Positions 8,741 through 36,897 of a stretch of DNA of 44,931 nucleotides are shown here, one piece after another. A model generated the notes under the pieces. The model was not told the DNA's origin. It made no database searches and saw nothing but the letters and a program-made list of their open reading frames with translations. The translations under genes were made by a program, and so were the position numbers. Each line of letters starts with the position of its first letter. Position 1 is the first letter of the stretch. Source of the DNA: Escherichia phage vB_EcoP_D. The stretch lies in sequence record KY295893.1; one strand, 5' to 3'.

Positions 8741-8756
8741 GTCTCACACGTGAGAC
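8741..8756. repeat. 16-bp palindrome GTCTCACACGTGAGAC
   Basis: Perfect-arm palindrome GTCTCAC-NN-GTGAGAC, intergenic, ~15 bp upstream (transcript sense) of promoter 8703..8725. Confidence 0.7.
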
Positions 8757-8757
8757 T

Positions 8758-8976
8758 TTATAAAACTGTGTTCACCTGAGCAATGTCATGCGCCGGAAGC
8801 GATACGCCGTGGCGTTTCCCCGTAGCTGGGTCGCTGTAGTTCACCACGTGCTGTCCGTCGCGCCAGATGTAGTGCAGGTCGGCATATGTGTCCCCTTCAG
8901 AGAAGGAGTGAAAAGTGTTGCCGCCAAGAGTTGTAATTCCTTTCTTGCAGTGCAGGGTTACGATTTGTACTTTCAT
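8758..8976 (-). CDS. hypothetical protein
   Basis: 72-aa ORF with RBS AAGGAG. Confidence 0.5.
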   Translation of the reverse strand: MKVQIVTLHCKKGITTLGGNTFHSFSEGDTYADLHYIWRDGQHVVNYSDPATGKRHGVSLPAHDIAQVNTVL

Positions 8977-8985
8977 CCTTTCTCC

Positions 8986-9792
8986 TTAATATTCCGCGTC
9001 CTCATCCATCTCCGGTGCAGGAGTATCTTCTGCTTCAGGTACTTCCTGTGGAACAGACTCACCAGTATCCAGAGATTTACGATTAGCTGGGGTAGCATCT
9101 TCCTCGTCTTTCTTCTTAGCCTTCTTCCATTCAGGGTCTTCTTCACGAGCAGCTTTGATAATAGCTTCTACGTGAGAGCCAGCAACAGACAGGTTCTTAC
9201 CACGAGGTGTCTCGTTCAGGAAGTATTGACGTACCAAGTTAGCTGGGATGTCATCAAGGATTTCTTTGGTCAGCTTGTCGAAGGTGATATGACCTGTCAT
9301 AGACAGACCTTCCTCTTCTACCTGAGCCAGTACAAGCTTCTTCAACTTATCAGGCATACCGCCAAAGCCTTTCCAGTTAACATACTTGAAAGTACCATCA
9401 TCATTCTTGTCGCCAGAGCCAACCATAGTTGCAGTCAGACATTCACCGATAAAATCATCGAAGCCACCCAGCAACTCTTTAGGGTCAACTGCATTCAGGA
9501 ACTTAGTCAGTGTTGCCTTATCACCAGACTTCAGAGGCACAGCCATCCATTGTTCCATGCGAGAATCATCTTCATTCTTATCGTCGTCACCCATCAGGAT
9601 AATCTTAACAAGAACAAAGTTTGCTGGCTTCTTAACTTCAGTGGTATTACCTTTCTTAAAGATATCTTGGAAGGAACCAACATGAATGATGCCAGAGATT
9701 ACTGCTTCATGATCACCAACTTCAGGGTTCTTAAATACTTTACCTTCAGCTTTAGTAACCTGAGCACCAAAATCAAAATCACCACGTGCCAT
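8986..9792 (-). CDS. hypothetical protein, possible ssDNA-binding protein (acidic C-terminal tail ending DEDAEY)
   Basis: 268-aa ORF, RBS AGGAG; the acidic tail ending in an aromatic residue is shared with T7 gp2.5, but no sequence similarity was recognised, so the function is a guess. Confidence 0.4.
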   Translation of the reverse strand: MARGDFDFGAQVTKAEGKVFKNPEVGDHEAVISGIIHVGSFQDIFKKGNTTEVKKPANFVLVKIILMGDDDKNEDDSRMEQWMAVPLKSGDKATLTKFLNAVDPKELLGGFDDFIGECLTATMVGSGDKNDDGTFKYVNWKGFGGMPDKLKKLVLAQVEEEGLSMTGHITFDKLTKEILDDIPANLVRQYFLNETPRGKNLSVAGSHVEAIIKAAREEDPEWKKAKKKDEEDATPANRKSLDTGESVPQEVPEAEDTPAPEMDEDAEY

Positions 9793-9848
9793 TTATTTAG
9801 TCTCCTATTGTTACACTACACAATCATAGGCCGAACTAAGCCGACCTA

Positions 9849-9871
9849 TTGTTCTATAGTGTCCAGTAATT
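9849..9871 (-). promoter_or_regulatory. phage RNAP promoter, main subclass (AATTACTGGACACTATAGAACAA)
   Basis: Core identical to the other main-class promoters, one change in the upstream AT-rich part; +1 G at 9854; overlaps the stop of 9870..10169. Confidence 0.55.
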
Positions 9872-10169
9872 ACTTATGAACTACCTTAATACGTGCAATA
9901 GTATCGAGAGGGTAGACATAACTAACACATTCACCATCTTCAACCTCTTGTACATTTACACTAGCCATAGTGTCACAAAGTGAAAGGCTCAATTGATGAC
10001 AAGTTTCACCTTGAGTAAACTCTGGACCACGATAGGCATCTGCTTGTTCCACAGTAGTGATTGCTGTATCGTCTTCTTTAGCCAGACGAGTGTGACCTGC
10101 AACTTTACGCTGCTCTAGATCACGAAAGATGATACCTACATGTTTAGCTTGAATCACTTCTTCCATCAT
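9870..10169 (-). CDS. hypothetical protein
   Basis: 99-aa ORF, RBS AAGGAG, tandem ATG ATG start. Confidence 0.5.
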   Translation of the reverse strand: MMEEVIQAKHVGIIFRDLEQRKVAGHTRLAKEDDTAITTVEQADAYRGPEFTQGETCHQLSLSLCDTMASVNVQEVEDGECVSYVYPLDTIARIKVVHK

Positions 10170-10175
10170 AACTCC

Positions 10176-10553
10176 TTATTTAGTCAAGTTGTCCAGTTCT
10201 ATTTCCAGCATAACAATCTCTTTCTTCAGGCTGTCAGATGCAGCTTGATTTACAAGAGCAATTGATGCCTTGTTCTCTTCAAATTCAGCTTTCAGGCTGT
10301 CACGCTCTTGCTGGTGACGTGCCAGCATATCTTCTACCTCTTTGACTTGACGTGCATTTAGTTCATCACGAGATGCATAGTAGCGGTTATGACAGTCAAT
10401 CATTTGAGAACTACGATGTTCTTCAACTTTAACTTGCTCTGCCTGTACTGCTTCGATGCGAGCCTCAATAGCTTTGATAGCCTTGGACTTGAACTTATTA
10501 GCAAGACCACGAAAGTATTGAGCCACGAATACCAGAGTAGTTACCATAGACAT
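10176..10553 (-). CDS. hypothetical coiled-coil protein
   Basis: 125-aa ORF, RBS AGGAG; charged heptad-like sequence. Confidence 0.5.
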   Translation of the reverse strand: MSMVTTLVFVAQYFRGLANKFKSKAIKAIEARIEAVQAEQVKVEEHRSSQMIDCHNRYYASRDELNARQVKEVEDMLARHQQERDSLKAEFEENKASIALVNQAASDSLKKEIVMLEIELDNLTK

Positions 10554-10617
10554 ATTTATATCTCCTATATTTATTTAATTACCTATACTACCTTATAAAC
10601 CTAGATTACCTAGGCTT

Positions 10618-10640
10618 TCCTTCTATAGTGTCCAGTAAAT
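10618..10640 (-). promoter_or_regulatory. phage RNAP promoter, main subclass (ATTTACTGGACACTATAGAAGGA)
   Basis: Minus-strand consensus match; +1 G at 10623; lies in the 370-bp intergenic region downstream of DNA polymerase. Confidence 0.6.
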
Positions 10641-10922
10641 CATGTTAGACTAAATAAGTAGGAATAAGTTATTCATAAAGGCCACTCGTAAGTGACCTTG
10701 AGTATAACTCAGTCGTAGTTACCATCACAATCTGGGTCAATGCCAGAGAAAGCCCAGAATACTACCATAAATAATATGACTCCAAGAATAATAAAAGATG
10801 CCTGCATCAATCGTAACCCTCCTCTTCATCAGGTATATCTAATCGCATACTTCCATAGCAAGCAAGCATAAGGAATATAAGAAAGAAAGTGGAGAATAGG
10901 CAAACAATATCAAACCTGTCCA

Positions 10923-13469
10923 TCAGTGTGTTTCCTTCCAACTTGCACCAATCTTATACTCACCTGCCATCGGACAACGCATCTTCAGGTACTGACCCGC
11001 CCAAGTCATTGCGTCGGCAATGATATGCCCTGCACGGTGATAGCGACGCTGGCAATGAAGTACACCAGCATCAGCATCAACGCTAACGAGATTTGCAGCA
11101 GACCACATACGTCCTTCAGAATCCACATGAACACGTTTCTCCTCTGCATCGAACACTGCTTTCACAGCAGCCTTCTCTGTTTCGAACCCTTCTAAGGTGA
11201 AAGGCAAGTCGTAGTTGAGATACAAGACCTCATCTTCAGGGACTTCCATCTGGATTTCATCGTGCACGTTAGCTATACCGCAAGGGTTTCCCATGCTATC
11301 TAAGGCCACACCTTCCTTGCGCATCACTGCAAACGCCCTGACCAATGCGTATTTCATACACAGAGAACCAGTCATCTGGAGTAGTACGTTAAGCATAGTG
11401 TGCTCTTTAAGTTCACCACCAGACATACGGATGCGACCCCAATGACCATCAGGTGCTTGTAGGTAGCCAAACTTGTTACCTTGTGCGATAACATTCTCAC
11501 GAAGACGTGCAAGAGATGGTAGTTCAACCTCAAATCTTGCCACAACTTCCTCCATTTCTTCCTCAGTAACACCACATACTGCTGCAAGGTTAGCTATACC
11601 AGACCCATATAGGAAGGCATATATAAATGTCTTCGCCATGTCACGCTTAGGAAGACCAGCCTTCATTTGATTATGGGTGTGAATGTCACCATGCAGTACA
11701 ATATCTTGATATTCAGGGTCATTCATGAAGTGAGACAGTACACGTAGTTCAAGACCAGCACCATCACAACCAAGGATTAGCTTACCTTTACCGGCTATGA
11801 ATAAATCACGTAAAGGATACAAACCACGGGCAGGAATATTAACCACGTTACGATGACGCATACGGAACGTAGAAGTTCCAATACTAATAGCAATAGCTGG
11901 CACACGCCATTCTCCGTCATCCTTGTCTGACGTAGGCCAGCATCCGTACCTTTCGTAGTATTGCTGCGCATTGATTCCTAACTCCTTGTTAAATGCTACA
12001 GGTACAAGGCCGCGACACTTTCGTATACCAGCTTGCGAAGGCCACACCCCCTTCTGGTCGAAGGCTTCAACGTCACCACGGTTGAGGATCTGACCACGAC
12101 GGGATACGAGTATGTACCATGCAGCGATACCCAAGCACCAATCAGGGACTGTTTTACCTTCACGTGCGGCTCTCTCTTGCCATAAAGTAAGGGACTTTTC
12201 ATTTATCTTCCCACTCCAAGGCTTGGGTAATACGCCATGCTCATCGAGATGCGCTTGCTCGGTATCGTTAAATTCAACACCTTTCCATCCATAATCATAG
12301 AGCACTTGCTTAACTGTATCCCTGTTACCCAAGGGAATCTCTTCGAAAGTAACAGGCGAGTAAGCGCCAATCCACTTGATGCTTGGCGTGTCATTACGGT
12401 TTCCTCTAAGGTGAGGAAAGTCTTTCTTGACGCTAGCCGACCAATCACCAGACTTAGTAGTGACACTCCATACTGTCTTGCGATCTCCTCGTCTCTCGGC
12501 ATGAAGAAAGTGTGAGGGGTCAAGGACAGTAGGTATATTGTTGCTAGCTCCATACTCATTTGCGCGTTGGCATACTTCATTCTTTTCTTCCGGTTTAAAA
12601 GGTTTAGACTTGATACGCATAGGCATGTGCGGACGGAACGCTGCGACTGTCTCATCAATCTTAGCGTCCAATTCCTCGCATCGTGCTAATGCTTTATCTA
12701 TATCCAGACGGAATCCACGCTCGGCCTGACGGCTCATCTCCAGCGCCACAATGGACTCCATGTGGAAGGCTGTCTCAATACCTAGGCCAGTGCGTTTATT
12801 CACGCCACGGCGTTTGTGCTCCGTCCATTCTCCGTTAAATAGCCAGAGGAATAGGTCACGGCCTATCGCCACGTCCTCGCGTACACGATGTACCATGTGG
12901 TCAGTTAGTTTAGACCAATCCTCGTTCTCCGGCTTATAACGGCCTATACGAATGCCGTGCGCCTCAATTGAGTGAGGGGCTACGTTACCCATGCCTTTGG
13001 CGTATGCTTGCGGAGGGAGGCGTCTATCGGGGTTTAACAGGCGACTCATGACCAGCGTATCCATGACGCGTACCGGACACAGGTCAGCGCGGAGTCTGCC
13101 CTTGCCGCGTCTCTCGGTATAGTTAAAGCCTTTCCAGATATCAGGGAATGCTTTCTCAAATAGAAGGCCGTCGTACCCTAGGAAGTTCTGTGAGACGATG
13201 GCTTCGCAGTGCTTAAGGAAGTTAACACCGTCAACCAATGTTCCATCTTGATGGCCTTCCCATTCTTTTAGGCGTTCTCTTGCTTCAGGGTCACGCATCT
13301 CGTATGGGTCAAAGAAGAGGAACTCCTCTGTAGTAAGCAAATCCATGCAGCAAATGATGTGCACATCTTCGCGGTGGCCATATCGGATAGCATCCAGCAG
13401 GCCTTTAGCCTCAGAATCCATCACTAAGATGCGGCCTTCTGCTTCCTTCTTCCAATCAATTGATTTCAT
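10923..13469 (-). CDS. DNA polymerase, family A (T7 gene 5-like)
   Basis: 848-aa ORF from ATG 13469 (MKSIDWKK, RBS GGAG); track start 13502 is TTG. Size and polymerase-domain composition fit a T7-type DNA polymerase with proofreading domain. Confidence 0.9.
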   Translation of the reverse strand: MKSIDWKKEAEGRILVMDSEAKGLLDAIRYGHREDVHIICCMDLLTTEEFLFFDPYEMRDPEARERLKEWEGHQDGTLVDGVNFLKHCEAIVSQNFLGYDGLLFEKAFPDIWKGFNYTERRGKGRLRADLCPVRVMDTLVMSRLLNPDRRLPPQAYAKGMGNVAPHSIEAHGIRIGRYKPENEDWSKLTDHMVHRVREDVAIGRDLFLWLFNGEWTEHKRRGVNKRTGLGIETAFHMESIVALEMSRQAERGFRLDIDKALARCEELDAKIDETVAAFRPHMPMRIKSKPFKPEEKNEVCQRANEYGASNNIPTVLDPSHFLHAERRGDRKTVWSVTTKSGDWSASVKKDFPHLRGNRNDTPSIKWIGAYSPVTFEEIPLGNRDTVKQVLYDYGWKGVEFNDTEQAHLDEHGVLPKPWSGKINEKSLTLWQERAAREGKTVPDWCLGIAAWYILVSRRGQILNRGDVEAFDQKGVWPSQAGIRKCRGLVPVAFNKELGINAQQYYERYGCWPTSDKDDGEWRVPAIAISIGTSTFRMRHRNVVNIPARGLYPLRDLFIAGKGKLILGCDGAGLELRVLSHFMNDPEYQDIVLHGDIHTHNQMKAGLPKRDMAKTFIYAFLYGSGIANLAAVCGVTEEEMEEVVARFEVELPSLARLRENVIAQGNKFGYLQAPDGHWGRIRMSGGELKEHTMLNVLLQMTGSLCMKYALVRAFAVMRKEGVALDSMGNPCGIANVHDEIQMEVPEDEVLYLNYDLPFTLEGFETEKAAVKAVFDAEEKRVHVDSEGRMWSAANLVSVDADAGVLHCQRRYHRAGHIIADAMTWAGQYLKMRCPMAGEYKIGASWKETH

Positions 13470-13674: not shown

Positions 13675-13799
13675 ACATTGCCTCTGTTTCGTAGTAGTCA
13701 TCTGAACGTTCAGGTTTTGAGTTCATTGAATCTTGGAAATCCCAATCAGAATCATAATCACGTGGCATAATGCACCTCCAATCAATATGATGAAAGGCT

Positions 13800-13815
13800 G
13801 TCTCACGTGTGAGAC
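13800..13815. repeat. 16-bp palindrome GTCTCACGTGTGAGAC
   Basis: Same arms as the other copies; intergenic; no promoter nearby. Confidence 0.7.
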
Positions 13816-13825
13816 AACCCTTTAC

Positions 13826-14035
13826 TTATCGACTGCGTGTTACAGTTAATTTCTGGCCCATGTATTTGCCTTGGTGTGGCTCCCAAGTTGCCTCTTTGAT
13901 AACTTGCTCGCGCGTCAGGCTATTCTTCTTGGCCTCAGCCATAGTTAACTGTGCGAACAGGAAGGCTTGGTTAGTAATCTTGGCTTGCAGGTCTTCATGA
14001 CCATCGAACATTTTAAGACTATGTTTATTCTGCAT
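13826..14035 (-). CDS. hypothetical protein
   Basis: 69-aa minus-strand ORF in the block between primase/helicase and DNA polymerase. Confidence 0.45.
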   Translation of the reverse strand: MQNKHSLKMFDGHEDLQAKITNQAFLFAQLTMAEAKKNSLTREQVIKEATWEPHQGKYMGQKLTVTRSR

Positions 14036-14243
14036 GTTTCACCATAAAGCTGCCGATTACATTAAACTCCTCACGGAACTCTTTTTCAGTCAAATGACCG
14101 AAAAGTTCCATCTGAAAACTTGCACTAAGACTGGCACCTATTAATGCAAACCCCTTTGAAGTACCATAGGGCTTAACACCATCTGGTGCTACAACTGCAT
14201 AGCATTTATGAGGTCCACGCATATAAATTAATACCTTAGTCAT
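14025..14243 (-). CDS. hypothetical protein
   Basis: 72-aa minus-strand ORF, tightly packed with neighbours. Confidence 0.45.
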   Translation of the reverse strand: MTKVLIYMRGPHKCYAVVAPDGVKPYGTSKGFALIGASLSASFQMELFGHLTEKEFREEFNVIGSFMVKHAE

Positions 14244-14943: not shown

Positions 14944-14976
14944 TCTCCAGTTATTTAATGTACTTAATAAGAGCCT

Positions 14977-14992
14977 GTCTCACAGGTGAGAC
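14977..14992. repeat. 16-bp palindrome GTCTCACAGGTGAGAC
   Basis: Intergenic; flanked by CCT...AAGCC exactly as the copy at 36882. Confidence 0.7.
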
Positions 14993-15009
14993 AAGCCCTG
15001 ATAAATACA

Positions 15010-15171
15010 CTAGATAAGGCGTGTTACAATAAAGAACATTGACATAAGAAAACCAGATGCAACGATAAGTTTCACAGCTTTCTTGAATCCATATCGTGCA
15101 GCATAATCTGCGATCACAAGCATGAATAGGATCTCAATACCGATATTCAATACTGGTTTAATAATTTCCAT
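15010..15171 (-). CDS. hypothetical small membrane protein
   Basis: 53-aa hydrophobic ORF (MEIIKPVLNIGIEILFMLVIADYAARYGFKKAVKLIVASGFLMSMFFIVTRLI), RBS AGGAG; ATG overlaps the primase/helicase stop (TAATG). Below the track's 60-aa cutoff. Confidence 0.3.
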   Translation of the reverse strand: MEIIKPVLNIGIEILFMLVIADYAARYGFKKAVKLIVASGFLMSMFFIVTRLI

Positions 15172-17159
15172 TAAAACTCCTGTTCATCGTCAAAGGTTGT
15201 CTCTTCTATAGTGTCCGGTAAATCAGGTACTTCTTGTTGCCTTGCTTCACCTGTATCAAATGACTTAGTACGGGCTTGTGGTTCTAGCAGTCGGCCCGTA
15301 GCGATGTCACCCTTAAGCATAATCTTAGTACCAGAGTAAATCCCTTGATCCCTATCTTTAACACAGGAAATATAGGTAGTAGTTCGCTCATCTAGTGTCT
15401 CTGCCCTCGTGTTCCTTTCGATGCCCAAGGCATATGATGCCCAAAAGCCGATAGCGCCTGAGCCTCGGAAGTCAGAAAGGATAACCTCGCCACCTTCTTC
15501 GTGTTGGGTACGGTTTGCCGGAGGACGTGTAAGGTGAGAGACAAGGAATATAGTAACTGGGTGTCGGTCTTTGATAGTACCAATCCGCTTGACGCATTCA
15601 TCAAGTGCACCAACCTTCCCACCAAAAGCACGCTCATCTAATTTAATCCCCGTTAAGTTATCAATGATGATATTAGAAATGCCCATAGCCTCAAACTCTA
15701 GGCAAGTTTGCTCTACCTTCTCCATAGAATAGTCGCCTTCTAGGTCAGCCACAAATAGCTTTCCTGTATCAGCCACATAATCAATGGCAGCGTTAGCTTC
15801 TTCCTCGGTGTAGTCGAACACCTCACGGTATCCGTCTTCTTTCGGGTCGTTGGTTGGCGGTAACTCAATACGCTTATCAATCCACTTGCCGATAAAAGCA
15901 CGGGACACCTTGACCATTGGGTCTTCTGTAGAAATGATGCCTACAGATTCACCGTGTTCTTCAATGAGGTGCTTAACCACTTCGCGAAGGAACTCAGTCT
16001 TACCTACACCAGAGCCTGCACCTACAATGATAAGCTGGTTCTTACGAATACCTAGCGTTACCTTGTTCAGCTTAGGCCAAGGCCATGATAACCCTTGCTC
16101 TGGACGTGCAGCCTTGAGCTTATCCCTTTGAGATGCGATAGATTTAATCTGGCTACCAAAGACTTCATCAGATGACTTGGCATTAAACCAAGCATCAACA
16201 AACTCTTTAGCCTTGCCAGCCATCAATGCCTTGTTAGCATCTTTGCAACCAGAGGGATATTCGAGGATGTAGGATTTGCCAGGAAACAGGCGAGCAGCTT
16301 GTTGGTTCTGCTTCTGCCCTACCTCATCCCCATCAAAACCCCATATAATCTTCTTGAATTGGGCGATATGCTCACGGTTCTGCACTATCTCTTCAAGGCA
16401 AGACTCGCCTTTGTTGACAGACCATACATGGTATGGCTGGCCTTCCCACTTAGTACCCTTGGCAGAATCAAGGAGCATCTGCTGCGCTGCTAGTGCATCA
16501 AGTTCACCACCTACAATAAGCAAGCAATCCTTTCGTCTCCCCTTGTCTAACACGTGAGACAAAGTATTCATACCGAAAAGATCTTGCATACCAAAGAGTT
16601 TACCTAAATGACCAAACTTAAAATCTTTAGGTAATGTGCGACACTTAGCGCCTACTAGCTCACCTTTTTCGAAGCGTGGATAGTAATGCCGTGAGACTCT
16701 ACCCTCTTCATCGTGCCCAACACGTACATCATACAATGCGCAAATGTCGCCGCGAATGTGTCTGGAAACAAGGTTCTTACGCTTAAGCGTGAGGAACCAT
16801 TCAACATCAAGTTTCCACTCTGCTTCTTGCTCTGCCCTTTCTTGTTCATTCATGACCTCCCAACGGTCTTTCATACGCATACCACCAAGTGCGATGGCGC
16901 GTAGCTTAGGGTCGCTAATCTTCCCTTCCTTCTCCATCTCTTTAAACTGAGAAGGTGTATATTTGATGTTTCCAGTGATAGGTAACTCTGTTATCTCGAT
17001 GCCACCTTCCGGCTTATGGTAGTAGGGTCTGCCATTATCATGGAAGTGACCACGGTTACAGTATCCTGCCCCGTCGTCAAAGATCATTAAATGATTGCCA
17101 GTAATATCATGTCCGTTCTTTTGGCAAGCAGGACACGGTACATTCTGAATAATAGCCAT
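15171..17159 (-). CDS. DNA primase/helicase (T7 gene 4-like)
   Basis: 662 aa; N-terminal Cys4 zinc motif (CPACQ...C..GH), central primase region, C-terminal Walker A GAGSGVGKTEF; acidic C-terminus ending DDEQEF; RBS GGGAG. Confidence 0.9.
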   Translation of the reverse strand: MAIIQNVPCPACQKNGHDITGNHLMIFDDGAGYCNRGHFHDNGRPYYHKPEGGIEITELPITGNIKYTPSQFKEMEKEGKISDPKLRAIALGGMRMKDRWEVMNEQERAEQEAEWKLDVEWFLTLKRKNLVSRHIRGDICALYDVRVGHDEEGRVSRHYYPRFEKGELVGAKCRTLPKDFKFGHLGKLFGMQDLFGMNTLSHVLDKGRRKDCLLIVGGELDALAAQQMLLDSAKGTKWEGQPYHVWSVNKGESCLEEIVQNREHIAQFKKIIWGFDGDEVGQKQNQQAARLFPGKSYILEYPSGCKDANKALMAGKAKEFVDAWFNAKSSDEVFGSQIKSIASQRDKLKAARPEQGLSWPWPKLNKVTLGIRKNQLIIVGAGSGVGKTEFLREVVKHLIEEHGESVGIISTEDPMVKVSRAFIGKWIDKRIELPPTNDPKEDGYREVFDYTEEEANAAIDYVADTGKLFVADLEGDYSMEKVEQTCLEFEAMGISNIIIDNLTGIKLDERAFGGKVGALDECVKRIGTIKDRHPVTIFLVSHLTRPPANRTQHEEGGEVILSDFRGSGAIGFWASYALGIERNTRAETLDERTTTYISCVKDRDQGIYSGTKIMLKGDIATGRLLEPQARTKSFDTGEARQQEVPDLPDTIEETTFDDEQEF
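15201..15223 (-). promoter_or_regulatory. phage RNAP promoter inside the 3' end of the primase/helicase gene (ATTTACCGGACACTATAGAAGAG)
   Basis: Perfect main-class consensus; +1 G at 15206; 35 nt upstream of the primase/helicase stop. Confidence 0.5.
16545..16560. repeat. palindrome-like element GTCTAACACGTGAGAC inside the primase/helicase gene
   Basis: One mismatch from the intergenic palindrome family; encodes SHVLDKG in-frame. Confidence 0.5.
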
Positions 17160-17316: not shown

Positions 17317-17339
17317 CTTATCTATACTGTCCGGTAAAT
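17317..17339 (-). promoter_or_regulatory. phage RNAP promoter, variant (ATTTACCGGACAGTATAGATAAG)
   Basis: One core mismatch (G for C at -5); +1 G at 17322; directly upstream of the gene 1.1-like ORF. Confidence 0.55.
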
Positions 17340-17344
17340 ACGAA

Positions 17345-17360
17345 GTCTCACATGTGAGAC
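17345..17360. repeat. 16-bp perfect palindrome GTCTCACATGTGAGAC
   Basis: Intergenic; ends 6 bp from the -17 position of promoter 17317..17339. Confidence 0.7.
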
Positions 17361-17500
17361 AACCTAGGTCTGCCCTTCCTCTGAGTGGTAATAAGAGGAA
17401 GGAAGAAGGTAATAGGTATTCCTAGATAACCTATATAACCTTTAATACCTATTACTTCCTTTATATCCTTTATCTTCCCTTTCTTTCCCGTCTCCGACGG

Positions 17501-17523
17501 CTATCCTATAGTGTCCGGTAAAT
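17501..17523 (-). promoter_or_regulatory. phage RNAP promoter, main subclass (ATTTACCGGACACTATAGGATAG)
   Basis: First promoter downstream of the RNAP gene; +1 G at 17506. Confidence 0.6.
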
Positions 17524-17526: not shown

Positions 17527-17542
17527 GTCTCACATGTGAGAC
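17527..17542. repeat. 16-bp perfect palindrome GTCTCACATGTGAGAC
   Basis: Identical to the copy at 17345; ends 4 bp from promoter 17501..17523. Confidence 0.7.
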
Positions 17543-20306: not shown

Positions 20307-21191
20307 TTACTTAGTCAACTCTTCTACTGCCTCAGAGATTAAGGGCCATGCTTCATGGCCTTCACCGTAGCCTAGCTTAACCAGTTCGCGGCGTGCCTTG
20401 TTAACTGCTGTTTTCTTCGTTGCCTCCTCAGCGCTTAAACCTAAGCGAGCATAGAAGCAGGAAGATTTGAATTGCGGCAGCATAGGCGCGGCTGCCTTCT
20501 TGCTTTCGCGTGCGCTACTTAAGGAGGCGATGCGGTCATTGGCTGCCTGTAATTGCTCAGTCAGTGCTTTAATTTGTGCCAGCAGACCAGCAATAGCGGC
20601 ATTCTCAGTATTAGCCGTGTTATCCAGCGGCGCGGCCTTCGGTGCCTCCGGCTTGCTTTCCTCTTCCCATGGTGCTGATTCGTCGGCCTCCTGCTCGCTC
20701 GCGGGTGGCACTACCTGCGGCGCTTGCATTTCCTGTGATTCTGCGGCCTCAGTCGCGTTCTCCTGCGGTTTTACCGCCTCAGCCTTAGATTGTACCGTTT
20801 CAGTCTTTATCTCTTTCTTAGGTTCAATCAGGGCGTTTACGGCATTAGTGTCCAGCTTGCCAGCTGCGGCGAGTTCTGCGGCCTTCTCCATGATTATATT
20901 TTCATCAGCGAAAGGAACAAGCGCCAGCATTACACGCATAGCCACACCTTTAAAGCGTTCGTCTCCTTCAAAGACACGGGCTACACTCATCAGCTTGTAG
21001 CATTGTGCCTTCTTGATGCCGAACTCTGATTCTACATAAGCTAAAAAGTCTTTTTGACCTTCGAAATCACCGCGTAATTCATTCAGACAAGCGCCAACTT
21101 TGATGTAAGAAGTGCCGATATTGTCTAAGTGCTGCTTGATTTCAGCGGTTGCAGCTTCACGAACAGACAGAAGGGTGTTTTCAGTAGTCAT
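20307..21191 (-). CDS. hypothetical early protein with acidic low-complexity middle and coiled coil
   Basis: 294 aa from ATG 21191 (RBS AAGGTG); track start 21200 is GTG. No family recognised. Confidence 0.55.
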   Translation of the reverse strand: MTTENTLLSVREAATAEIKQHLDNIGTSYIKVGACLNELRGDFEGQKDFLAYVESEFGIKKAQCYKLMSVARVFEGDERFKGVAMRVMLALVPFADENIIMEKAAELAAAGKLDTNAVNALIEPKKEIKTETVQSKAEAVKPQENATEAAESQEMQAPQVVPPASEQEADESAPWEEESKPEAPKAAPLDNTANTENAAIAGLLAQIKALTEQLQAANDRIASLSSARESKKAAAPMLPQFKSSCFYARLGLSAEEATKKTAVNKARRELVKLGYGEGHEAWPLISEAVEELTK

Positions 21192-23794: not shown

Positions 23795-23810
23795 GTCTAA
23801 CGTGTGAGAC
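23795..23810. repeat. palindrome-like element GTCTAACGTGTGAGAC
   Basis: One arm mismatch relative to the GTCTCAC-NN-GTGAGAC family; upstream of the early promoter. Confidence 0.5.
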
Positions 23811-24384: not shown

Positions 24385-24426
24385 CCCCATATGGGGGAAA
24401 TCCGGCGAGGGCGAGGGCGAGAGAGC
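24385..24426. other. candidate genome-terminus region: CCCCATATGGGGG palindrome plus GGCGAGGGCGAGGGCGAGAGAGC
   Basis: Coding-strand reading TCTCTCGCCCTCGCCCTCGCCGGATTTCCCCCATATGGGGCC parallels the T7 left end as I recall it (TCTCACAG...TTCCCCCATAGGGGG); non-coding and GC-rich. Confidence 0.4.
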
Positions 24427-29450: not shown

Positions 29451-30180
29451 AATAAGTCCTTGAAATCCTTGCAGAAAGTGTATTTCTGCTTGCCGATTTA
29501 CTCCTGTAATTCTGACCGTATACTCTTTGCTGCATAGCCACGGAAGTGTTGGTTACTCTTCGCTCAGTGCCATAATCTCCATAGAGCATTGCCCTACGGA
29601 GGTGAGGTGTGTTCATAGCTTGGATATAATCGCGCATCTCCTGCGCTCTGAGGCGATTAATCCGTGTAACCTCGTCATAGTCTATCTGAGAAGTTAATTG
29701 CCGTATAGCGCCATACAGCGCGTCTAAGCGGTCATCGTGCCGGAGGCTGTTCTTCTCAATCGTGATGTTCGACATTTGATTGAAAAGGCTGTATGACATG
29801 CGTAGTTCAAGCGGATAGTGCTGTACCGACTCAAAATCAGACTTGACCATCTCTGCGTTGAAGATGAGCCTGTGGGCCGCCATTAGTGGCTCTAGTGTTT
29901 CAATGATACGCAACTCTTTCTGTCCGGTGGCGTAATCTTCCTCCAGAGTCACAGGCCACTCTCGTTCAAAGTATGGCTTTATAACGGCCTCAAACGCGCC
30001 ATGACCAAAGTTCTTTTCAATGAATACCTCTTTAACACCTGCCTGCTTTGCGGCCTGCACAATGCGATTCAGGGACGATTCGCGGTATCCTCCCGGCACA
30101 CCAAAGCACTGATACACATAAATGAATGTGCCGTGCAGGAAGACGATAGCCACACCCGTTTCATCCCCATTCTTACCTCC
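29449..30180 (-). CDS. terminase large subunit, exon 2 (nuclease domain)
   Basis: Encodes GGKNGDETGVAIVFLHG... and a downstream HDDRLDAL acidic motif; in frame with exon 1 after removal of 30181..30926; spliced product ~633 aa. Confidence 0.75.
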   Translation of the reverse strand, partial: GGKNGDETGVAIVFLHGTFIYVYQCFGVPGGYRESSLNRIVQAAKQAGVKEVFIEKNFGHGAFEAVIKPYFEREWPVTLEEDYATGQKELRIIETLEPLMAAHRLIFNAEMVKSDFESVQHYPLELRMSYSLFNQMSNITIEKNSLRHDDRLDALYGAIRQLTSQIDYDEVTRINRLRAQEMRDYIQAMNTPHLRRAMLYGDYGTERRVTNTSVAMQQRVYGQNYRSKSASRNTLSARISRTY

Positions 30181-30706
30181 CGGTTTGAACGTGACGTGCG
30201 AGCCAACCCTTGTGGTGTTTACGTAAACCATGTGCCACCTTACGCATATTCTGAGGTGTTAGGTTGTGCTCTTTACAGAAGTCAGTAATGCAAGTTACAA
30301 GAAACTCTTCACCATCTGGAGAAGTGAATATGTAATCTTTGCCAGTACCTTTGTTGTAAGGTGTCATGCCTTTCTTGAACTCAGTGGCAACAGACAAGTG
30401 CTGTCCTTTCTTGATTTCAGTGGCAATACTTATGCGTTCACCTTTCTCGATGTTACCTGCTTTGCGATAACCACCTTTACCCTTATTCCAACCCATGTTG
30501 TCATGTGGGCGTAGCTTCTCTTCTAGTGCATAACACTCTTCTTTGCTACCAGTGAATAAGATAACGTACTCGCGGCCATCACAAAGACGGCCTGCACACT
30601 TGTGCTCTCTCATACGCTTCTTAATATCGGAGGTTACACCAATATAACCTTGCATTACATCAGTTTCACCAACAACACGAATATGATAAACTTTATGCTC
30701 TGTCAT
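30173..30706 (-). CDS. GIY-YIG homing endonuclease, intron-encoded
   Basis: 177 aa, RBS AAGGGAG; N-terminal KVYHIRVVGETDVMQGYIGVTSDIKKRMREH fits the GIY...YIG...R...E pattern, followed by repeated basic GxxxxxxxIATExKKG segments; stop codon lies 6-8 nt past the predicted 3' splice site. Confidence 0.85.
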   Translation of the reverse strand: MTEHKVYHIRVVGETDVMQGYIGVTSDIKKRMREHKCAGRLCDGREYVILFTGSKEECYALEEKLRPHDNMGWNKGKGGYRKAGNIEKGERISIATEIKKGQHLSVATEFKKGMTPYNKGTGKDYIFTSPDGEEFLVTCITDFCKEHNLTPQNMRKVAHGLRKHHKGWLARHVQTGR

Positions 30707-30926
30707 ATTTAACTCCCTTCAATTGTTACGTTAATTCGCTACTTTAACTTCTACTAGTCACCTAGTAGGTCGGACTATATCTTAGGCTTGCGCCTCCCTC
30801 TGTTTCAGACCGCTTGGCCTTACAGTTAGTCTCTACACGTTCCTGTTATTGCAACAGGCTTCGCTCGGTATTGTCTCAGTGAGAGTTCCACCGAATTAAG
30901 AGGGTTTTACGCTGGCAGAGGTGTTT
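30181..30926 (-). mobile_element. group I intron in the terminase large-subunit gene
   Basis: Intron RNA contains matches to the group I core elements: P-like AAUUCGGUGGAA (30886..30897), Q-like AAUACCGAGC (30863..30872), R-like GUGUAGAGACUAAC (30825..30838), S AAGAUAUAGUCCG (30771..30783). Predicted P1 pairs exon GCUGGU with GCCAGC (30911..30916) with a U.G at the splice site; predicted P10 pairs exon 2 GGAGGU with ACCUCU; last intron base is G. Confidence 0.75.
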
Positions 30927-32096
30927 ACCAGCGGGGTCAATGTACATAATTTTACGGGTGACAGCGCCCCATTCATACGGTCGGGCCACAGGGCGATACA
31001 TAAAGTCTGTAGGCTTATTGCCATACTTCGGTGCATCGCCAATGATGTTAATAGAGTCGTTGCTCCATGTAGGCATCACAGGGACTTCCTCTGTACCGAA
31101 TGAAGTGAAGATGAGGTTGTTCAGGCGTAGCGGATAGCGGTCAGCATCCATCATGCGAGTGTTAAGCATAAACTGAAGCTGGAACTTAGCCGCACCCTGC
31201 GAGATTTCCTTCTCAATCAGCACATCATCATCATACATTTCAGGTGCACAAGGGGCACCACTATTGCCATCCAAGCCATACCCTGAGCGAAGTGCTGGGT
31301 TGTCCTTCATATCCTGCACAATCATAGGTGCAAGGAAGTCGCCATAGCATTGCTCCTGCTCCACTGAGGGATAACGTGCAGTCCAGATACGAACAGAGTA
31401 ACCACGAGCAGGTAGGTTATTGTAGATAGAGTTTACGTTCTGAGGAGTACCAAGGTAGATAATATCACCAAACTGGTTAATAGATTCAAACTCCTTGGTC
31501 AGTTCCTCAAGCAAGGCACGTCCTGCCGCTGTACGAGCATTCTGCATTGACTCAACGTCATCTGCTAGGATGATATCTGCACGCGCACCCTGCATACCTG
31601 CTTCGATTGAGTAACAAGACACAGAAGGCGACTTGTCACTGCCACGTAGGGTGTAATGAATCTCAAATGCCTTAACTGAGGCACGGTCCCCTGCGTAGAT
31701 GTCCGGTAGCATAAACTCAAGAAAGTCTAGGCCACGGAAGATTTTAACTACCCAACCTGCGATTTCCTCTGCTCGCTTGGCGTTTTGGGATACAACCATG
31801 ATACGCTTATGCGGTTCATGAATGATACGGAATACTGTATAGATTGCTGATAGTGTTGTCTTAGCGATACCACGAGGCGCTTCGATGAGGCGATACTTGT
31901 GTCCGTAGAATAGGAACTTCAAGATATCAGCCTGCATACGAATCAGATGAGGGTTGCCTGCAATTAAGTTATGAATAACTGTGTCTGCAAAGAGAAGCAA
32001 ACCTTCCGCTGTGTAAGGAAAGGTCTGCTGTAACTCCTGTAGCATCTCCCATCTGGCAAGAGCCTCCGCTTGTGATTCTCTTGCCTTAGCCATCAA
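30927..32096 (-). CDS. terminase large subunit, exon 1 (ATPase domain)
   Basis: Encodes 390 aa up to ...KIMYIDPAG; track ORF continues 16 codons into the intron to a stop (...KHLCQRKTLLIRWNSH). ATG at 32093 follows an in-frame TTG at 32096. Confidence 0.8.
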
Positions 32097-32570: not shown

Positions 32571-32579
32571 CTCACCTCC

Positions 32580-33542
32580 TTACACTAGTTGTAGCTTCAC
32601 ACTTACGACACACTCAGGTAATGGCTCACTGAAAGTGATAGTAGACCCTACGATTTCATAAGCATTATTAGGTTGATACAGGCCATCCAAGTATACATCA
32701 AGACGTTGGAAAGCCGTTACAATGTCGATAGATTGTGTACCTTCACTCACTGCTTGTGTAAAGAGGATAGTATCCGCACTTGTAGGTGGGGTTAAGCGAC
32801 TACCGATAAGCACATAAACTTCATCCCCAGCCTGTAATGGCTCGGACAGGGTTATAACATCATACCCCACTGATACTGCACCTGCTAGTTCATGCTGGAA
32901 TACACCGTTTATAAACACCATAGCATCATCAAATGAGTAAGGTGGTCGAATGATTTGCTCTCCACCGGAGGCGACCATATACCAAGGAATCGTGCGATGA
33001 GATACACCAGACACCATTCCTCTCTTAATACCAGCAATCTCTATATCTTGTGCAGAGTTCCAATCAGTATGCTTCTTGTCGATAGCATCTAGCTGTGATT
33101 TATTTACTGCATCTTTTGGATTCTCACCATCAGCTAGGTCAGTAATCTTATTGCCGCCCCAGCTTACATTCTGCTTAATGAAGTATCCTTCTGGATAAAA
33201 CCCATCAAGTAACTCCTGTGTAATCTCCAGTATATGAATGAAAGAGCCATTTAAAGACTTCATATCCAAGGTAACACCACGGTCAAACTCAGCGTATGGA
33301 TATTCCTTTTGTACTTCCCTTCGAATACGGAACTTCAAACCTGCAACAGGTGCTACATCAAAAGTGATTTGATGCGTACCAGTTAATTGCCAGCCAGATG
33401 TAACCTCAATCCAAGTGTTACCTTGAAGAGATTCCACTATCACATCTGAGGCACGAAGATAGCCTTTATCCCTGCCAGCAAAGCTAAAGGGATAGGTTAC
33501 TTGCGTACCGTTGGCTATATGTTCTGTGAAAGTATAACTCAT
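32580..33542 (-). CDS. tail-fibre/tailspike adaptor protein (T7 gp17 N-terminal-domain-like)
   Basis: 320 aa from ATG 33542 (overlaps upstream stop as ATGA); N-terminus MSYTFTEHIANGTQVTYPFSFAGRDKGYLRASDVIV follows the pattern of T7 tail-fibre N-termini; too short to be a full fibre. Confidence 0.65.
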   Translation of the reverse strand: MSYTFTEHIANGTQVTYPFSFAGRDKGYLRASDVIVESLQGNTWIEVTSGWQLTGTHQITFDVAPVAGLKFRIRREVQKEYPYAEFDRGVTLDMKSLNGSFIHILEITQELLDGFYPEGYFIKQNVSWGGNKITDLADGENPKDAVNKSQLDAIDKKHTDWNSAQDIEIAGIKRGMVSGVSHRTIPWYMVASGGEQIIRPPYSFDDAMVFINGVFQHELAGAVSVGYDVITLSEPLQAGDEVYVLIGSRLTPPTSADTILFTQAVSEGTQSIDIVTAFQRLDVYLDGLYQPNNAYEIVGSTITFSEPLPECVVSVKLQLV

Positions 33543-36500
33543 CAATCCTCCAGTTCATCTAAGCCATAACGCAATGCGTTCTGGATTCCTATTACATTAG
33601 TTAGAGGCACTAAGCGTAAAGCCCTACGTGCCACATCTACACCTTCTGTATCACCCTCTGCATATTTAGTTATAGAATCTGCTAAACGATATGCATCTTG
33701 ACCAACACCTACTAGTGGTATTTGGTCTATCAAACCTTTAGTCTGAAAGCCAGCCTCATAACGGGATTGTACTAACTCAGAAGGTAGAACACCTAGGCCA
33801 CCTAAGAAATCTCCACCTAGACTAAATACAGCAGTTGTACTCATCATACCCATTGCACCAAAGGCCAACCCTTTAGGCGATAACTTCTCTTCCAAATATT
33901 CATCTTGGTCTTCTCGCCCAATAGAGTTCACATAGGCTTTTGCCGCATACACTATTGAACCCAAAGCAAACCCGTAAGCTGTCTTCTTAGCAAGACCAAT
34001 TTTATCGTGGCGAATCCCTCGACCAAATTGCTTCTCACCAGATACAAGAGAGAATGACTTAAGCTGTGCAAATGTCTTACCTAGTGCTTTGTTCATCCAG
34101 ATACCTTCATCACCAATGAAGTTACGTTGGATAATTAGACCTGACTTACGACGAATAGCATTAGCTAAAGTTTCACCCATGGCATAAGGCATTGTATCAA
34201 AGCCAAGCAAGCCAGAACCTTTAGAGTTAGCATCATAGTGCTTCTGTAGGTTAGTCATGAACTCCTGAGTAAGACCAAGTTCCTCCAGTTTCTTCTGAGG
34301 AATAATCTTCTTGCCTTCAAGGTGGTCAATGAAAGACAAAGCTATTTGCCTATTGGTCATTCGCTCCAGAGAACCCTGTGCCATGCGGAAGAGTGATAGG
34401 TTGGTTTGAGCACGACGTATTGAGTTCATGGATTGGTCAAAGTGAGCCATCATTCCTTTTACTGTGGTTACATCACCAAACTCATCTGGACGTGCACCCT
34501 TGGTTGTTAGCCAGTTATCCTCACCAATGTAACCTACCATCCTCTCTACTTCTGCCAAGTTCTTATCTCGGAAGAAGCCATCACCGCTCCGCAAAGCCTT
34601 AGATGTAAAGCGGAATTGCTTACCTAAAGCTATAGTGGTTGCAGCAATACCAAACTCACCCATGAAGTTAGCAAGTTCACCCAGCTGTGCGAAGCCCATC
34701 TGACCTAAGCGAAGTACACCTGTAATGTCACGACCACGACGCAGCATTTTAGTAGACAAAGCCTGTGGGTCTGCATCGATAGATTTACCCATAATCAAGC
34801 GAAGCCCTTCTCGCATCTGACGGATTTCTTCATCAATAGCCAGACCTGCTGCTTCATCTTTCTCTTTCAATTTAAGTCGCTTCTTTAGCTCTTCAATCTT
34901 CTCTTGTGCCTTCTTGTAATCAGGCTCTGATTGACGAATCTTAGCAGACTCCGCTTCAAATTGTGCGTGTGCTTTTGTATCTTTAGCTGCATTTCGTGCA
35001 TTTCGCTCTACAAGGTCAATTGCATTAAGTGCAGCCTGATAGGTAGAGAAACCTTGACGAGCCAAGGCAGCACCACCTGCCGCTTCCTTCATGTAGTTAT
35101 CTGTTAACTCTTCCACGTTAGTATTCATAAAGTCACGCATACGAATGCCATTGTACTCTTGAGTAACATCTAAGCCTAAACTCATCTTAGCTCGGTTAGA
35201 GATATTATCTTTGGTTTCTTTATTATCCAGAGCTTCTACCATCTTTTCAATTTCTTCATCACTGAAGCCTGCCTTGCGCATTATTGCTTCATACTCTGCT
35301 TTAGTCTGACCAGACATAGCCTTTTCGAAACTCATACGTCCTGTCAGAGTGGCATCCACAACACGGTTTACTTGTGCTCGTGCAATTTCATCCGCTACTT
35401 CTTTTGGAATTTTACGAGCGCCGTTCTGATAAGCACGAGAGAATAACTCAATGATATCTTCTTTATCGTGCATACCGAATTGACGACGAGCCTTCATACT
35501 GTCAAAAATATCAGGCATGTACTTATCATCTGCTTTAACCTTTTCAAACCCAGCTTCACCAGAGCGTTGACGTAATGCTAATGCTTCACGATACATAGCT
35601 TGCTGCCCCTCTGCTGCCATACGGATAGACTTAGGCGTAGCCTCATCCATACCGATGCGTACAGCTTCCCATACCTTCTCATTATATTGCTGCACATAGT
35701 GAGAGTTAGTATGGCCTGCAACTGGATTGATATTATTTTCTTTGAGCCATAAGTCAAACCCGTCATTGAAACGGTTCATATCAGCAGACTTCAGTCGATT
35801 CAAGTTGGTATTCTGCATAAGACTGGCAGATGCCTTTTGCATACCTAAACCTTGCGGAGACTCAAACAGGCGAGCACCGAGGCCACGAACACTAGCATCC
35901 TGAGAGGAGTGCACGACAGTCCCAAGGGCAGACATAGTTCCGGCCCAGCGGCGAGGTGTCATATCAATTGCATTACCTTCCCGCTGTAGGGTTTTCAGCA
36001 AATCTTCACCTTTGCTAGAGATATCAAATGCACCCTCAGTGAGTACCTCTTCGCCCTTAACACGCATCGCACCGATACTGTCATCAGCAACAGCACGCAC
36101 ATAGCGGTCCCCTGCGTCTGCACTGCGCACAATGCTCGCAGCCCTGTCATCCCCTTGCTCACTGAGCTTAGTGGCCCTACCACGCGCTACAGCTCCAATA
36201 ACGCCACCCATAGCCATACCGGAACCTAGTGCTACCATAATGTCATCTAAATCACGAGTCATGTCACCTTGGACCAATACGGATTCAATAGCGGCATTAC
36301 TCACGCCAGCGGCGATAGCGCCACGCACAGCACGGCCTACGAGTCCAACTTTAGCTGCACCACCGGTTGGAATAGAGGCAACCCAACCCACTGGGTCAAG
36401 CACAGCAGCGCCAATCGTTGCCACAGAGCCGGCCCATCCAGCCTGAGCAATGCGCTTATTGCGCTCAAGGTCTTCATCAGCATTCTGAATACGGAAGTTC

Positions 36501-36850
36501 AATTCATCCTCAGAACGAACACCCTCAGTGATTGTCTGCATCATATCCGTACCATATTTGAAACGTAGTGCTTCACGTTGCTCTGGTTGGATTTCAAAGT
36601 CAGGTTGGGGTGTGAAATCAGCAGTGGCACGGTCATACCATCGCTTACCTCCGAATGCCAACCATTCATTCTGGAAGGCAGCACCTACAGCACCTAAGAT
36701 GTCCGCATCAGCTTTGGCTTCAAGAACTTGCTCTTGTAACTCATTACGCTGGCGTATCGTAGGAGCCGATACCGGAGCCGCCTCAATAGAAAACGGCTCA
36801 GGAGTAGACTGGACATATCCAGCCCAATTAGTCTTAATATCTTGTTCCAT
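33542..36850 (-). CDS. internal virion protein, large (T7 gp16 position)
   Basis: 1102-aa ORF, RBS GGAGGAA; last of three large genes after tail tube B. Confidence 0.7.
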   Translation of the reverse strand: MEQDIKTNWAGYVQSTPEPFSIEAAPVSAPTIRQRNELQEQVLEAKADADILGAVGAAFQNEWLAFGGKRWYDRATADFTPQPDFEIQPEQREALRFKYGTDMMQTITEGVRSEDELNFRIQNADEDLERNKRIAQAGWAGSVATIGAAVLDPVGWVASIPTGGAAKVGLVGRAVRGAIAAGVSNAAIESVLVQGDMTRDLDDIMVALGSGMAMGGVIGAVARGRATKLSEQGDDRAASIVRSADAGDRYVRAVADDSIGAMRVKGEEVLTEGAFDISSKGEDLLKTLQREGNAIDMTPRRWAGTMSALGTVVHSSQDASVRGLGARLFESPQGLGMQKASASLMQNTNLNRLKSADMNRFNDGFDLWLKENNINPVAGHTNSHYVQQYNEKVWEAVRIGMDEATPKSIRMAAEGQQAMYREALALRQRSGEAGFEKVKADDKYMPDIFDSMKARRQFGMHDKEDIIELFSRAYQNGARKIPKEVADEIARAQVNRVVDATLTGRMSFEKAMSGQTKAEYEAIMRKAGFSDEEIEKMVEALDNKETKDNISNRAKMSLGLDVTQEYNGIRMRDFMNTNVEELTDNYMKEAAGGAALARQGFSTYQAALNAIDLVERNARNAAKDTKAHAQFEAESAKIRQSEPDYKKAQEKIEELKKRLKLKEKDEAAGLAIDEEIRQMREGLRLIMGKSIDADPQALSTKMLRRGRDITGVLRLGQMGFAQLGELANFMGEFGIAATTIALGKQFRFTSKALRSGDGFFRDKNLAEVERMVGYIGEDNWLTTKGARPDEFGDVTTVKGMMAHFDQSMNSIRRAQTNLSLFRMAQGSLERMTNRQIALSFIDHLEGKKIIPQKKLEELGLTQEFMTNLQKHYDANSKGSGLLGFDTMPYAMGETLANAIRRKSGLIIQRNFIGDEGIWMNKALGKTFAQLKSFSLVSGEKQFGRGIRHDKIGLAKKTAYGFALGSIVYAAKAYVNSIGREDQDEYLEEKLSPKGLAFGAMGMMSTTAVFSLGGDFLGGLGVLPSELVQSRYEAGFQTKGLIDQIPLVGVGQDAYRLADSITKYAEGDTEGVDVARRALRLVPLTNVIGIQNALRYGLDELED

Positions 36851-36881
36851 AGTTCCTCCATAGTGCCTATCATAAAGACCT

Positions 36882-36897
36882 GTCTCACATGTGAGAC
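36882..36897. repeat. 16-bp perfect palindrome GTCTCACATGTGAGAC
   Basis: Intergenic between the two largest internal virion protein genes; flanked by CCT...AAGCC as at 14977. Confidence 0.7.

Follow-up and report, generated by a model that had tools for sequence, protein, structure and literature searches.

One question raised by the genome of Escherichia phage vB_EcoP_D (sequence record KY295893.1) is what reads the 16-bp palindrome that it carries in eight copies, and whether it is read as RNA or as DNA. The element consists of two 7-bp arms around a two-base centre, and the earlier note on this DNA had offered two readings of it: either a site bound by a dimeric protein or a short RNA hairpin that signals processing or termination. 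The window, as the term is used here, is the whole stretch of 44,931 bp that was analysed; it holds a K1E-like Vectrevirus genome (SP6 group, Autographiviridae) in circularly permuted form. All genes in the window lie on the minus strand, which is thus the sense strand. Escherichia phages vB_EcoP_R and vB_EcoP_C match it with 100% identity over a 10-kb stretch, and K1E with 97%; the ends of K1E map onto the window at 24422 (left end) and 24134 (right end). Taken together, sequence comparisons and structural models suggest that the palindromes are double-stranded DNA operators for a dimer of the early protein gp6, dispersed as a network comparable to that of KorB and its OB sites, a reading to which we assign a probability of roughly 0.68. 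What singles out gp6 as the candidate reader is that, among the SP6-like phages, the residue predicted to read the DNA varies together with the palindrome.

Eight copies in conserved slots

The exact pattern GTCTCACNNGTGAGAC occurs six times in the whole window (8741, 13800, 14977, 17345, 17527 and 36882) and not once in 100 dinucleotide-preserving shuffles. A search that tolerates up to two mismatches gains only 16545 and 23795, with one mismatch each, against a shuffle mean of 0.08. Exact and mismatch searches therefore recover the eight copies of the earlier note, six perfect and two with a single mismatch, and its judgement that such a number lies far beyond chance stands against a shuffle expectation of about zero. 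In both 16545 and 23795 the mismatched arm is GTCTAAC on the plus strand, or GTTAGAC on the sense strand. The palindrome with an AT centre is written here as TGTCTCAC-AT-GTGAGACA, with TGTCTCAC as the half-site.

Copy 1 (23795-23810; sense GTCTCAC-ac-GTTAGAC) lies about 610 nucleotides (nt) from the physical left end, between the terminal repeat and the first of the sigma-70-like early promoters, which are downstream of it. Copies 2 (17527-17542) and 3 (17345-17360) stand alone downstream of the RNA polymerase gene and end 3 nt and 5 nt upstream of the phage promoters at 17506-17523 and 17322-17339, respectively. Copy 7 (8741-8756) follows the gp17 stop codon without a gap, and 15 nt separate its end from the phage promoter downstream at 8708-8725. 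Copy 4 (16545-16560), with one mismatch, falls within the primase/helicase gene, where it codes for S-H-V-L-D. The remaining copies occupy gene boundaries, copy 5 (14977-14992) between gp9.5 and gp10, copy 6 (13800-13815) between gp11 and gp11.5, and copy 8 (36882-36897) between gp35 and gp36, each at the apex of a hairpin of the RNase III type. This placement agrees with what had been read from the letters, namely seven intergenic copies, one copy inside the primase/helicase gene, and three copies close upstream of phage promoters, for which the sense-strand distances are 3, 5 and 15 nt.

The earlier note had proposed counting the palindrome in related phages at syntenic positions, and the outcome of that count is clearly positive. 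Palindromes stand on the same gene boundaries in all SP6-like genomes examined (Molineuxvirinae, Colwellvirinae and relatives), with 82 copies in ten genomes and 6 to 10 copies per genome, and T7, the sole genome examined from outside the group, has no such repeated palindrome. K1E, K1-5 and KAW1A4500 have these copies too, in the slots that they occupy in the window, and in SP6, Proteus Pm5460, Lelliottia phD2B, Klebsiella Kp7 and Pectobacterium PP1 the same slots hold the variant GTC(C/T)AAC-N2-3-GTTGGAC. The GTCTCAC form appears again in the distant lineages of Erwinia Era103, Vibrio AS51 and Pseudomonas Achelous, the last two being members of the Colwellvirinae. Further forms are GTCTAGT-RY-ACTAGAC in Klebsiella Kp_Z1 and a PP99-like contig (L402), GTCTACA-NN-TGTAGAC in the IMG/VR contigs L399-L401, GTCTC(T/C)T in Aeromonas Tola, GTCTCA(T/C) in Shewanella phiY2, and GTTCGAG-AT-CTCGAAC in Marinomonas CPP1m; short-anchor scans of IMG/VR gave mostly chance matches among the matches listed. 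The left-end slot of copy 1 is also filled in K1E, K1-5, SP6, Pm5460, phD2B, Kp7, PP1, Era103 and Achelous. The slot of copy 7 (8741) is kept in K1-5, SP6, Pm5460, phD2B, PP1, Era103, AS51 and Achelous, and no palindrome was detected in that slot of Kp7.

Some relatives depart from a single palindrome type or from a simple intergenic position. ACG-C91 (at 10225) and K1-5 (at 9570) each have one GTCCAAC-type copy among copies of the GTCTCAC type. The flanks of the ACG-C91 copy, in the gp35/36 slot, are identical to those of K1E, from which it follows that the 16-mer was swapped as a block, and the K1-5 copy, in the gp11/12 slot, lies at a mosaic junction with an SP6-like downstream gene. These lone GTCCAAC sites could be relics or imports. 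In AS51 the RNA polymerase gene is annotated as two overlapping fragments, and a perfect palindrome at 4686-4702 lies in their overlap, at the very place where the gene appears to be split.

Constraints on the palindrome and the candidate reader gp6

The central dinucleotide, which had been described as variable and free, does vary but is not free, being purine-pyrimidine (R-Y) in 57 of 58 two-base centres from the ten genomes. When all 82 copies are considered, the centre is R-Y or R-N-Y in 81, and whether it has 2 or 3 bp depends largely on the lineage. Of 74 copies, 73 have T or A at position -1 and 70 have A or T at position +1. Mismatches, counted over 150 unique elements, fall mostly at arm positions 4-5, where they amount to combinations of the GTCTCAC, GTCTAAC and GTCCAAC half-sites, and arm positions 6-7 seldom vary, a pattern that is the opposite of the tolerance expected from hairpin stability alone. 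In the three slots with extended hairpins, the flanking stems covary freely and the apex TGTC(Y)(M)AC...GACA is invariant or two-state.

Coding copies are constrained as well. Copy 4, in the primase gene, encodes S-(N/H)-V-L-D, and its synonymous positions are frozen across genera as adjacent codons drift; its Asn/His residue goes with the palindrome type of the genome, and if the right arm were perfect it would contain an in-frame TGA stop. The same dependence on palindrome type is seen in a second coding slot, which Era103, phD2B and PP1 have in the RNA polymerase gene. An mRNA hairpin makes little sense for these coding copies or for the left-end copy, which lies upstream of the first early promoters. 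The frozen apex, the mismatch pattern, the R-Y centre, and the left-end and coding copies thus argue for a sequence-specific reader with two-fold symmetry.

The proposed reader is the product of gene 6 (20307-21191, minus strand; 294 amino acids). Gp6 is present in all palindrome-bearing genomes, and tblastn found no match to it in T7, which also has no palindrome. Together with gp16, gp17 and gp18, it is among the proteins that are common to all carrier phages and undetectable in T7, and these four gave no Pfam, PHROG or PDB sequence match. Gp6 was found in 213 phage records and, among the matches listed, is named a hypothetical protein, left unannotated, or misnamed (for example, as "endolysin"). 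In the structural model, residues 10-122 form an N-terminal helix-turn-helix domain with a ParB/KorB-like fold, in which a single long helix precedes the helix-turn-helix; the fold matches listed are ParB (6.1), Spo0J (5.6), P1 ParB (5.0), SopB-DNA (4.8) and VirB-DNA (4.7). Beyond this domain lie a disordered acidic linker, a long helix (192-234) that could mediate dimerisation, and a J-domain-like C-terminal domain lacking the HPD motif. The J-domain-like module (LGL...KA.RELVKLGYGEGHEAW; 20307-20450, minus strand) is the best conserved part of gp6 and has HEA in place of HPD; host DnaK or some other protein would be its partner.

Other proteins were considered as readers and rejected. Gp10, which has a Cys-rich motif, is missing from AS51 and Era103, and gp16 and gp18 resemble acidic-tailed proteins of the single-stranded-DNA-binding type. 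Both gp16 (8986-9792, minus strand) and gp18 (8281-8652, minus strand) are acidic, with tails that end in an aromatic residue (...EDAEY and ...EEEEF, respectively), like T7 gp2.5, and gp16 may be the missing single-stranded-DNA-binding protein of SP6-like phages.

When whole-protein identities were compared for a trans-acting specificity switch, no protein stood out; only the per-column analysis of gp6 did. Residue 66 is the sole column, among about 290 in the alignment of the whole of gp6, that perfectly separates GTCTCAC-type from GTCCAAC-type genomes. In the window this residue is Lys66 (codon at 20994-20996, minus strand), in the predicted recognition helix KKAQCY-K-LM (helix 61-74). It is lysine in every GTCTC-type genome (Vectrevirus, Era103, AS51, Achelous, Shewanella phiY2 and Aeromonas Tola), asparagine in every GTCCAAC-type genome (Pm5460, phD2B, Kp7, PP1 and seven BP12B-like contigs), and histidine in SP6, the sites of which are GTCTAAC/GTTGGAC, corresponding to the half-sites GTCTAAC and GTCCAAC. 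Genomes of the GTCTA types have arginine, with W at the second helix position accompanying GTCTAGT and Y accompanying GTCTACA, and Marinomonas CPP1m, with the site GTTCGAG, has a strongly diverged helix. Residue 66 and the second helix position covary with half-site positions 4-7 in at least nine lineages. Lysine with G:C and asparagine with A:T are chemically sensible amino acid-base preferences. Furthermore, in neighbour-joining trees of primase and of RNA polymerase, Vectrevirus (K) is nested in the N/H clade, with Era103 and AS51 (both K) outside it, and it follows from this nesting that the protein residue and all sites switched together at least twice.

In the mechanism that these observations suggest, the early protein gp6, which host RNA polymerase produces just ahead of the phage RNA polymerase, would bind the palindrome as a dimer through its N-terminal ParB/KorB-type helix-turn-helix domain. 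The half-site would be (T)GTC-T-C-AC, with position 5 read by Lys66 of the recognition helix. The sites so occupied would number eight: one at the left end upstream of the early promoters, three at phage promoters, one in primase/helicase, and three at gene boundaries. The three boundary palindromes would be accommodated at the tips of T7-type RNase III-like hairpins, where the palindrome should be harmless because it only lengthens the stem. Candidate outputs are the regulation or roadblocking of transcription at the early-to-middle switch, genome organisation, and recruitment of host Hsp70 via the J-like domain. Operators of this kind cover the frozen sequence, the symmetric constraints, the apparent mismatches as two accepted half-sites, and both the coding and the untranscribed copies. 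The dimeric-protein site is accordingly, of the two readings that the earlier note left side by side, the one that best explains the sequence conservation, gp6 having a predicted ParB/KorB-type fold and a recognition-helix residue that covaries with palindrome type.

Several points weigh against gp6 operators. The link between gp6 and the palindrome is drawn from a model and from covariation, the fold scores are moderate, and gp6 has neither the N-terminal ParB/Srx CTP-binding domain (GxxRxxA motif) nor a ParB-type Pfam match. Lacking the CTPase domain, gp6 would therefore be ParB-like in its DNA-binding domain only and not a full member of the family. Both palindrome types occur within some Vectrevirus genomes (in the gp11/12 slot of K1-5 and the gp35/36 slot of ACG-C91), and Pm5460 carries 2-bp as well as 3-bp centres, which demands a flexible dimer. 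The distance between palindrome and promoter ranges from about 0 to 18 nt, so that a simple promoter-operator geometry is unlikely. Finally, asymmetric copies on the sense strand show T.G 15 times and C.A 6 times among unique elements (T.G in 5 of 6 in Aeromonas Tola), an excess that hints at pairing or selection at the RNA level also, although the test is only suggestive and the elements are not phylogenetically independent.

RNase III-type hairpins and competing explanations

The RNA reading put forward in the earlier note survives in part, since three of the eight copies have the architecture, flanks and covariation of a processing-type hairpin, and fails for termination, since no consistent U-tract follows the copies. 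At 36882, 14977 and 13800, and only there, the palindrome is part of a hairpin with a lower stem, an asymmetric internal loop, and an upper stem long enough to put 11 bp or more between loop and scissile bond. The copy 5 hairpin (14956-15012, minus strand), with a lower stem, an internal loop and an upper stem of 13-14 bp, is conserved in eight genomes, and its core has a predicted folding free energy of -19.7 kcal/mol on the sense strand versus -12.4 kcal/mol on the antisense strand. In the gp11/11.5 slot, which holds the copy 6 hairpin (13779-13835, minus strand), 95.8% of cells are paired and 11 pairs are changed on both sides. In the gp35/36 slot the figure is 95% of cells, versus 33-44% in slid controls, and four lower-stem pairs are changed on both sides; here the copy 8 hairpin (36860-36918, minus strand) has the sense sequence uaguaccua-ACUCAAGGcuu-GUCUCACauGUGAGAC-aggUCUUUAUGAU-aggcacua. 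The hairpin of the gp9.5/10 slot behaves across genera as those of the gp35/36 and gp11/11.5 slots do. At the three sites, G.U pairs in the hairpin flanks give the sense folds an advantage in stability of 5-8 kcal/mol over the antisense folds.

At what we take to be the coordinates of the T7 RNase III sites, every site shows ACUCAAGG, a stem-loop of about 10 bp and then CCUUUAU|GA, on a lower stem, and the predicted bracket pattern of the hairpins at 36882, 14977 and 13800 is identical to that of R0.3, R1.1, R4.7 and R18.5. The flanks match in full at 36882 (ACUCAAGG...UCUUUAUGAU), where ACUCAAGG...UCUUUAU|GAU matches R18.5 and R1.1, and in part at 13800 (AAAGGG...CCUUUCAUCA) and 14977 (UCAGGG...CUCUUAUUAA). 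By analogy with T7, these three hairpins are putative targets of RNase III. The copies at 8741, 17345, 17527, 16545 and 23795 form isolated stems of 6-7 bp, and the mismatched copies 16545 and 23795 hardly fold. Because E. coli RNase III requires at least 11 bp from the cleavage site to the loop (PMC1540722), the stems of these five stand-alone copies are too short for them to be RNase III substrates. A search for transcript-end data on Vectrevirus or SP6 found none in the searchable literature.

Other hairpins in the window lie apart from the palindromes or beside them. A palindrome-free, canonical T7-type RNase III-like hairpin at about 10665-10711 (minus strand; ACUCAAGGUCACUUACGAGUGGCCUUUAU|GAA) is followed without interruption by a phage promoter at 10623-10640, and a lone half-site, GTCTAAC, is found at 10650, immediately ahead of the same promoter. 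At 8708-8740 (minus strand), the spacer between the palindrome at 8741 and its promoter pairs with promoter positions -12 to -5 (GGUGUCCGGU/ACUGGACACU), and in Pm5460, phD2B, PP1, SP6 and AS51 the spacer shifts so as to stay complementary to the promoter specificity region of the phage concerned; this hairpin would exist only in read-through transcripts. In two further regions (9808-9871 and 5068-5131, minus strand) a phage promoter is followed by a long hairpin in which the promoter core CACUAUAG pairs with downstream sequence, resembling the promoter-overlapping T7 RNase III sites R3.8, R6.5 and R13. Transcripts of the first promoter after the RNA polymerase gene start with a conserved 5' hairpin, CCGUCGGAGACGG (about 17480-17505, minus strand), which covaries as CCATC/GATGG in phD2B and PP1 and as CCTTC/GAAGG in Kp7. 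A search of the window with Rfam returned a group I intron as its only match (30751-30999, minus strand; 61 bits, E 3.5e-13). This intron lies in the split terminase large-subunit gene and is adjoined by a homing-endonuclease open reading frame (30173-30706), the same layout being annotated in K1E as genes 40A, 40.5 and 40B.

If the palindrome acted purely as RNA, it would be a hairpin of the sense strand only, serving as the distal part of RNase III signals or as a small hairpin that protects 3' or 5' ends, and its uniformity within a genome would be due to gene conversion. Such a role suits the three copies at the apex of T7 RNase III-type hairpins with their flanking consensus and covariation, the greater stability of the sense folds, the excess of T.G (15) over C.A (6), the copies that abut ribosome-binding sites in AS51, Era103 and Achelous, and the block swap of the ACG-C91 16-mer, which fits conversion. 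It is unlikely, however, to be the whole explanation: five of the eight copies are isolated stems well below the 11 bp that RNase III needs, the two mismatched copies barely fold yet are conserved, and the left-end copy lies upstream of all early promoters. A hairpin also leaves unexplained the invariance of the arms from Pseudomonas to E. coli hosts, the R-Y centre, and the correlation with residue 66. A terminator, whether intrinsic or of class I, was rejected because the copies lack a consistent U-tract; no U-run directly follows the hairpins, and only 17527 precedes a U-rich stretch (UUUAUUU), which is a promoter start, the other copies being followed by A or mixed sequence. A true T-phi-like terminator is found elsewhere, in the fold window 43716-43779.

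It is also conceivable that the palindrome is a signal read by a phage enzyme, either a pause or termination site for RNA polymerase (like that of T7 class II) or a signal for primase/helicase or a replication origin. Copies lie beside the two promoters that follow the RNA polymerase gene and near the left end, positions that in T7 are the primary and secondary replication origins, the arms start with GTC, which is the core site of T7 primase, and RNA polymerase and primase alike are conserved throughout the carrier phages. The primase-site idea was nevertheless set aside, the sequences flanking the GTC core being inconsistent and the SP6 primase reportedly recognising 5'-GCA-3', not GTC. Palindrome type is, moreover, independent of promoter specificity: GTCCAAC is common to four genera with different promoters, and coevolution with the promoter was rejected on that ground. 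As most copies have no following U-tract, and two-fold symmetry and gp6 covariation are left unexplained, an enzyme signal appears highly improbable. As little credence can be given to a selfish or recombinational element, that is, a palindromic module homogenised by template switching that offers micro-homology for the exchange of gene modules. The mosaic junction at the K1-5 gp11/12 copy with its SP6-like downstream gene, the presence or absence of gp9.5 beside the 14977 slot, the cores that are flipped relative to their flanks in some relatives, and the stem-loop-plus-promoter units formed by three copies would fit such an element; against it stand slots whose synteny holds stably from phages of Vibrio and Pseudomonas to those of E. 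coli, a primase copy that arose in place without insertion or deletion, a near-constant copy number (6-10 per genome), and, again, the covariation with gp6.

Known systems and meaning for SP6-like phages

The proposed gp6 operator network is likened by fold to KorB-OB of the IncP plasmid RK2, a member of the ParB family (structures 1r71 and 8qa8). Unlike KorB, gp6 has no ParB/Srx CTPase domain, and there is no detectable sequence similarity between the two; gp6 has in addition an acidic linker, a long helix and a J-domain-like C-terminus, and its binding and repression are predicted only. Similar in kind are ParB-parS, Noc-NBS and SopB-sopC, in which dimeric helix-turn-helix proteins read 16-bp palindromes as gp6 is proposed to do. 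The sopC core has the 7-2-7 geometry of the phage palindrome, and the specificity of ParB and Noc is switched by a few residues, as that of gp6 appears to be by residue 66. The chromosomal parS half-site, TGTTTCAC as used in ParB papers, is one base apart from the phage half-site TGTCTCAC. In contrast to parS, which has no centre, the phage palindrome has a centre of 2-3 bp, and unlike the clustered centromere sites of ParB type, the phage sites are dispersed over the early and middle regions. The phage also has no ParA partner and no spreading domain, and partition is not expected in a lytic phage.

The hairpins at 36882, 14977 and 13800 are like the T7 RNase III sites (R0.3 to R18.5; Dunn and Studier 1983) in frame, flanks, intergenic position and proximity to promoters. 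They differ in an upper stem of 13-14 bp, compared to about 10 bp in T7, and in an apex that is the invariant palindrome; five palindrome copies have no hairpin frame, and cleavage at the others is putative. T4-type PeSL cassettes (Arbiol et al. 2010) and bacterial REP elements are alike in being repeated intergenic stem-loops at module boundaries, sometimes paired with promoters, and in their mosaic junctions. Whereas those elements keep structure and repeat context and have no identified coevolving reader, the arm sequence of the phage palindrome is frozen and tracks one protein residue. In the searchable literature, full-text searches on RNase III or palindromes in SP6-like phages gave nothing relevant, and neither the palindrome nor a function of gp6 was found described, although the SP6, K1-5 and K1E genome papers may have mentioned the repeat earlier.

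The predicted network would place operators of the ParB/KorB type in a lytic phage of the T7 supergroup. To our knowledge, phages of the T7 supergroup are thought to have no sequence-specific DNA-binding regulators of their own, and to use promoters, terminators, RNase III sites and RNA polymerase inhibitors. If gp6 binds the palindromes, a function class would be assigned to an early gene that is among the best conserved of the "hypothetical" ones in the SP6 group, and a KorB-like operator network would be added to a lytic podovirus. The apparent specificity code of one residue for one base is readily testable by mutagenesis. More speculatively, and with the odds against so broad a proposal, gp6 and its operators may constitute a regulatory layer common to SP6-like phages (Molineuxvirinae, Colwellvirinae and relatives), in which an early ParB-fold protein docks at the left end, the first phage promoters and gene boundaries, and controls the early-to-middle switch or organises the incoming genome, possibly engaging Hsp70. 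The residue-66 specificity (K, N, H or R) would then flip between close relatives in the manner of immunity or incompatibility determinants, sparing co-infecting relatives cross-regulation. This is also of practical concern, as K1E, K1-5 and SP6 relatives serve phage therapy and phage engineering, and if the network is real, removing "junk" palindromes, recoding primase, or exchanging gene 6 between phages could break it.

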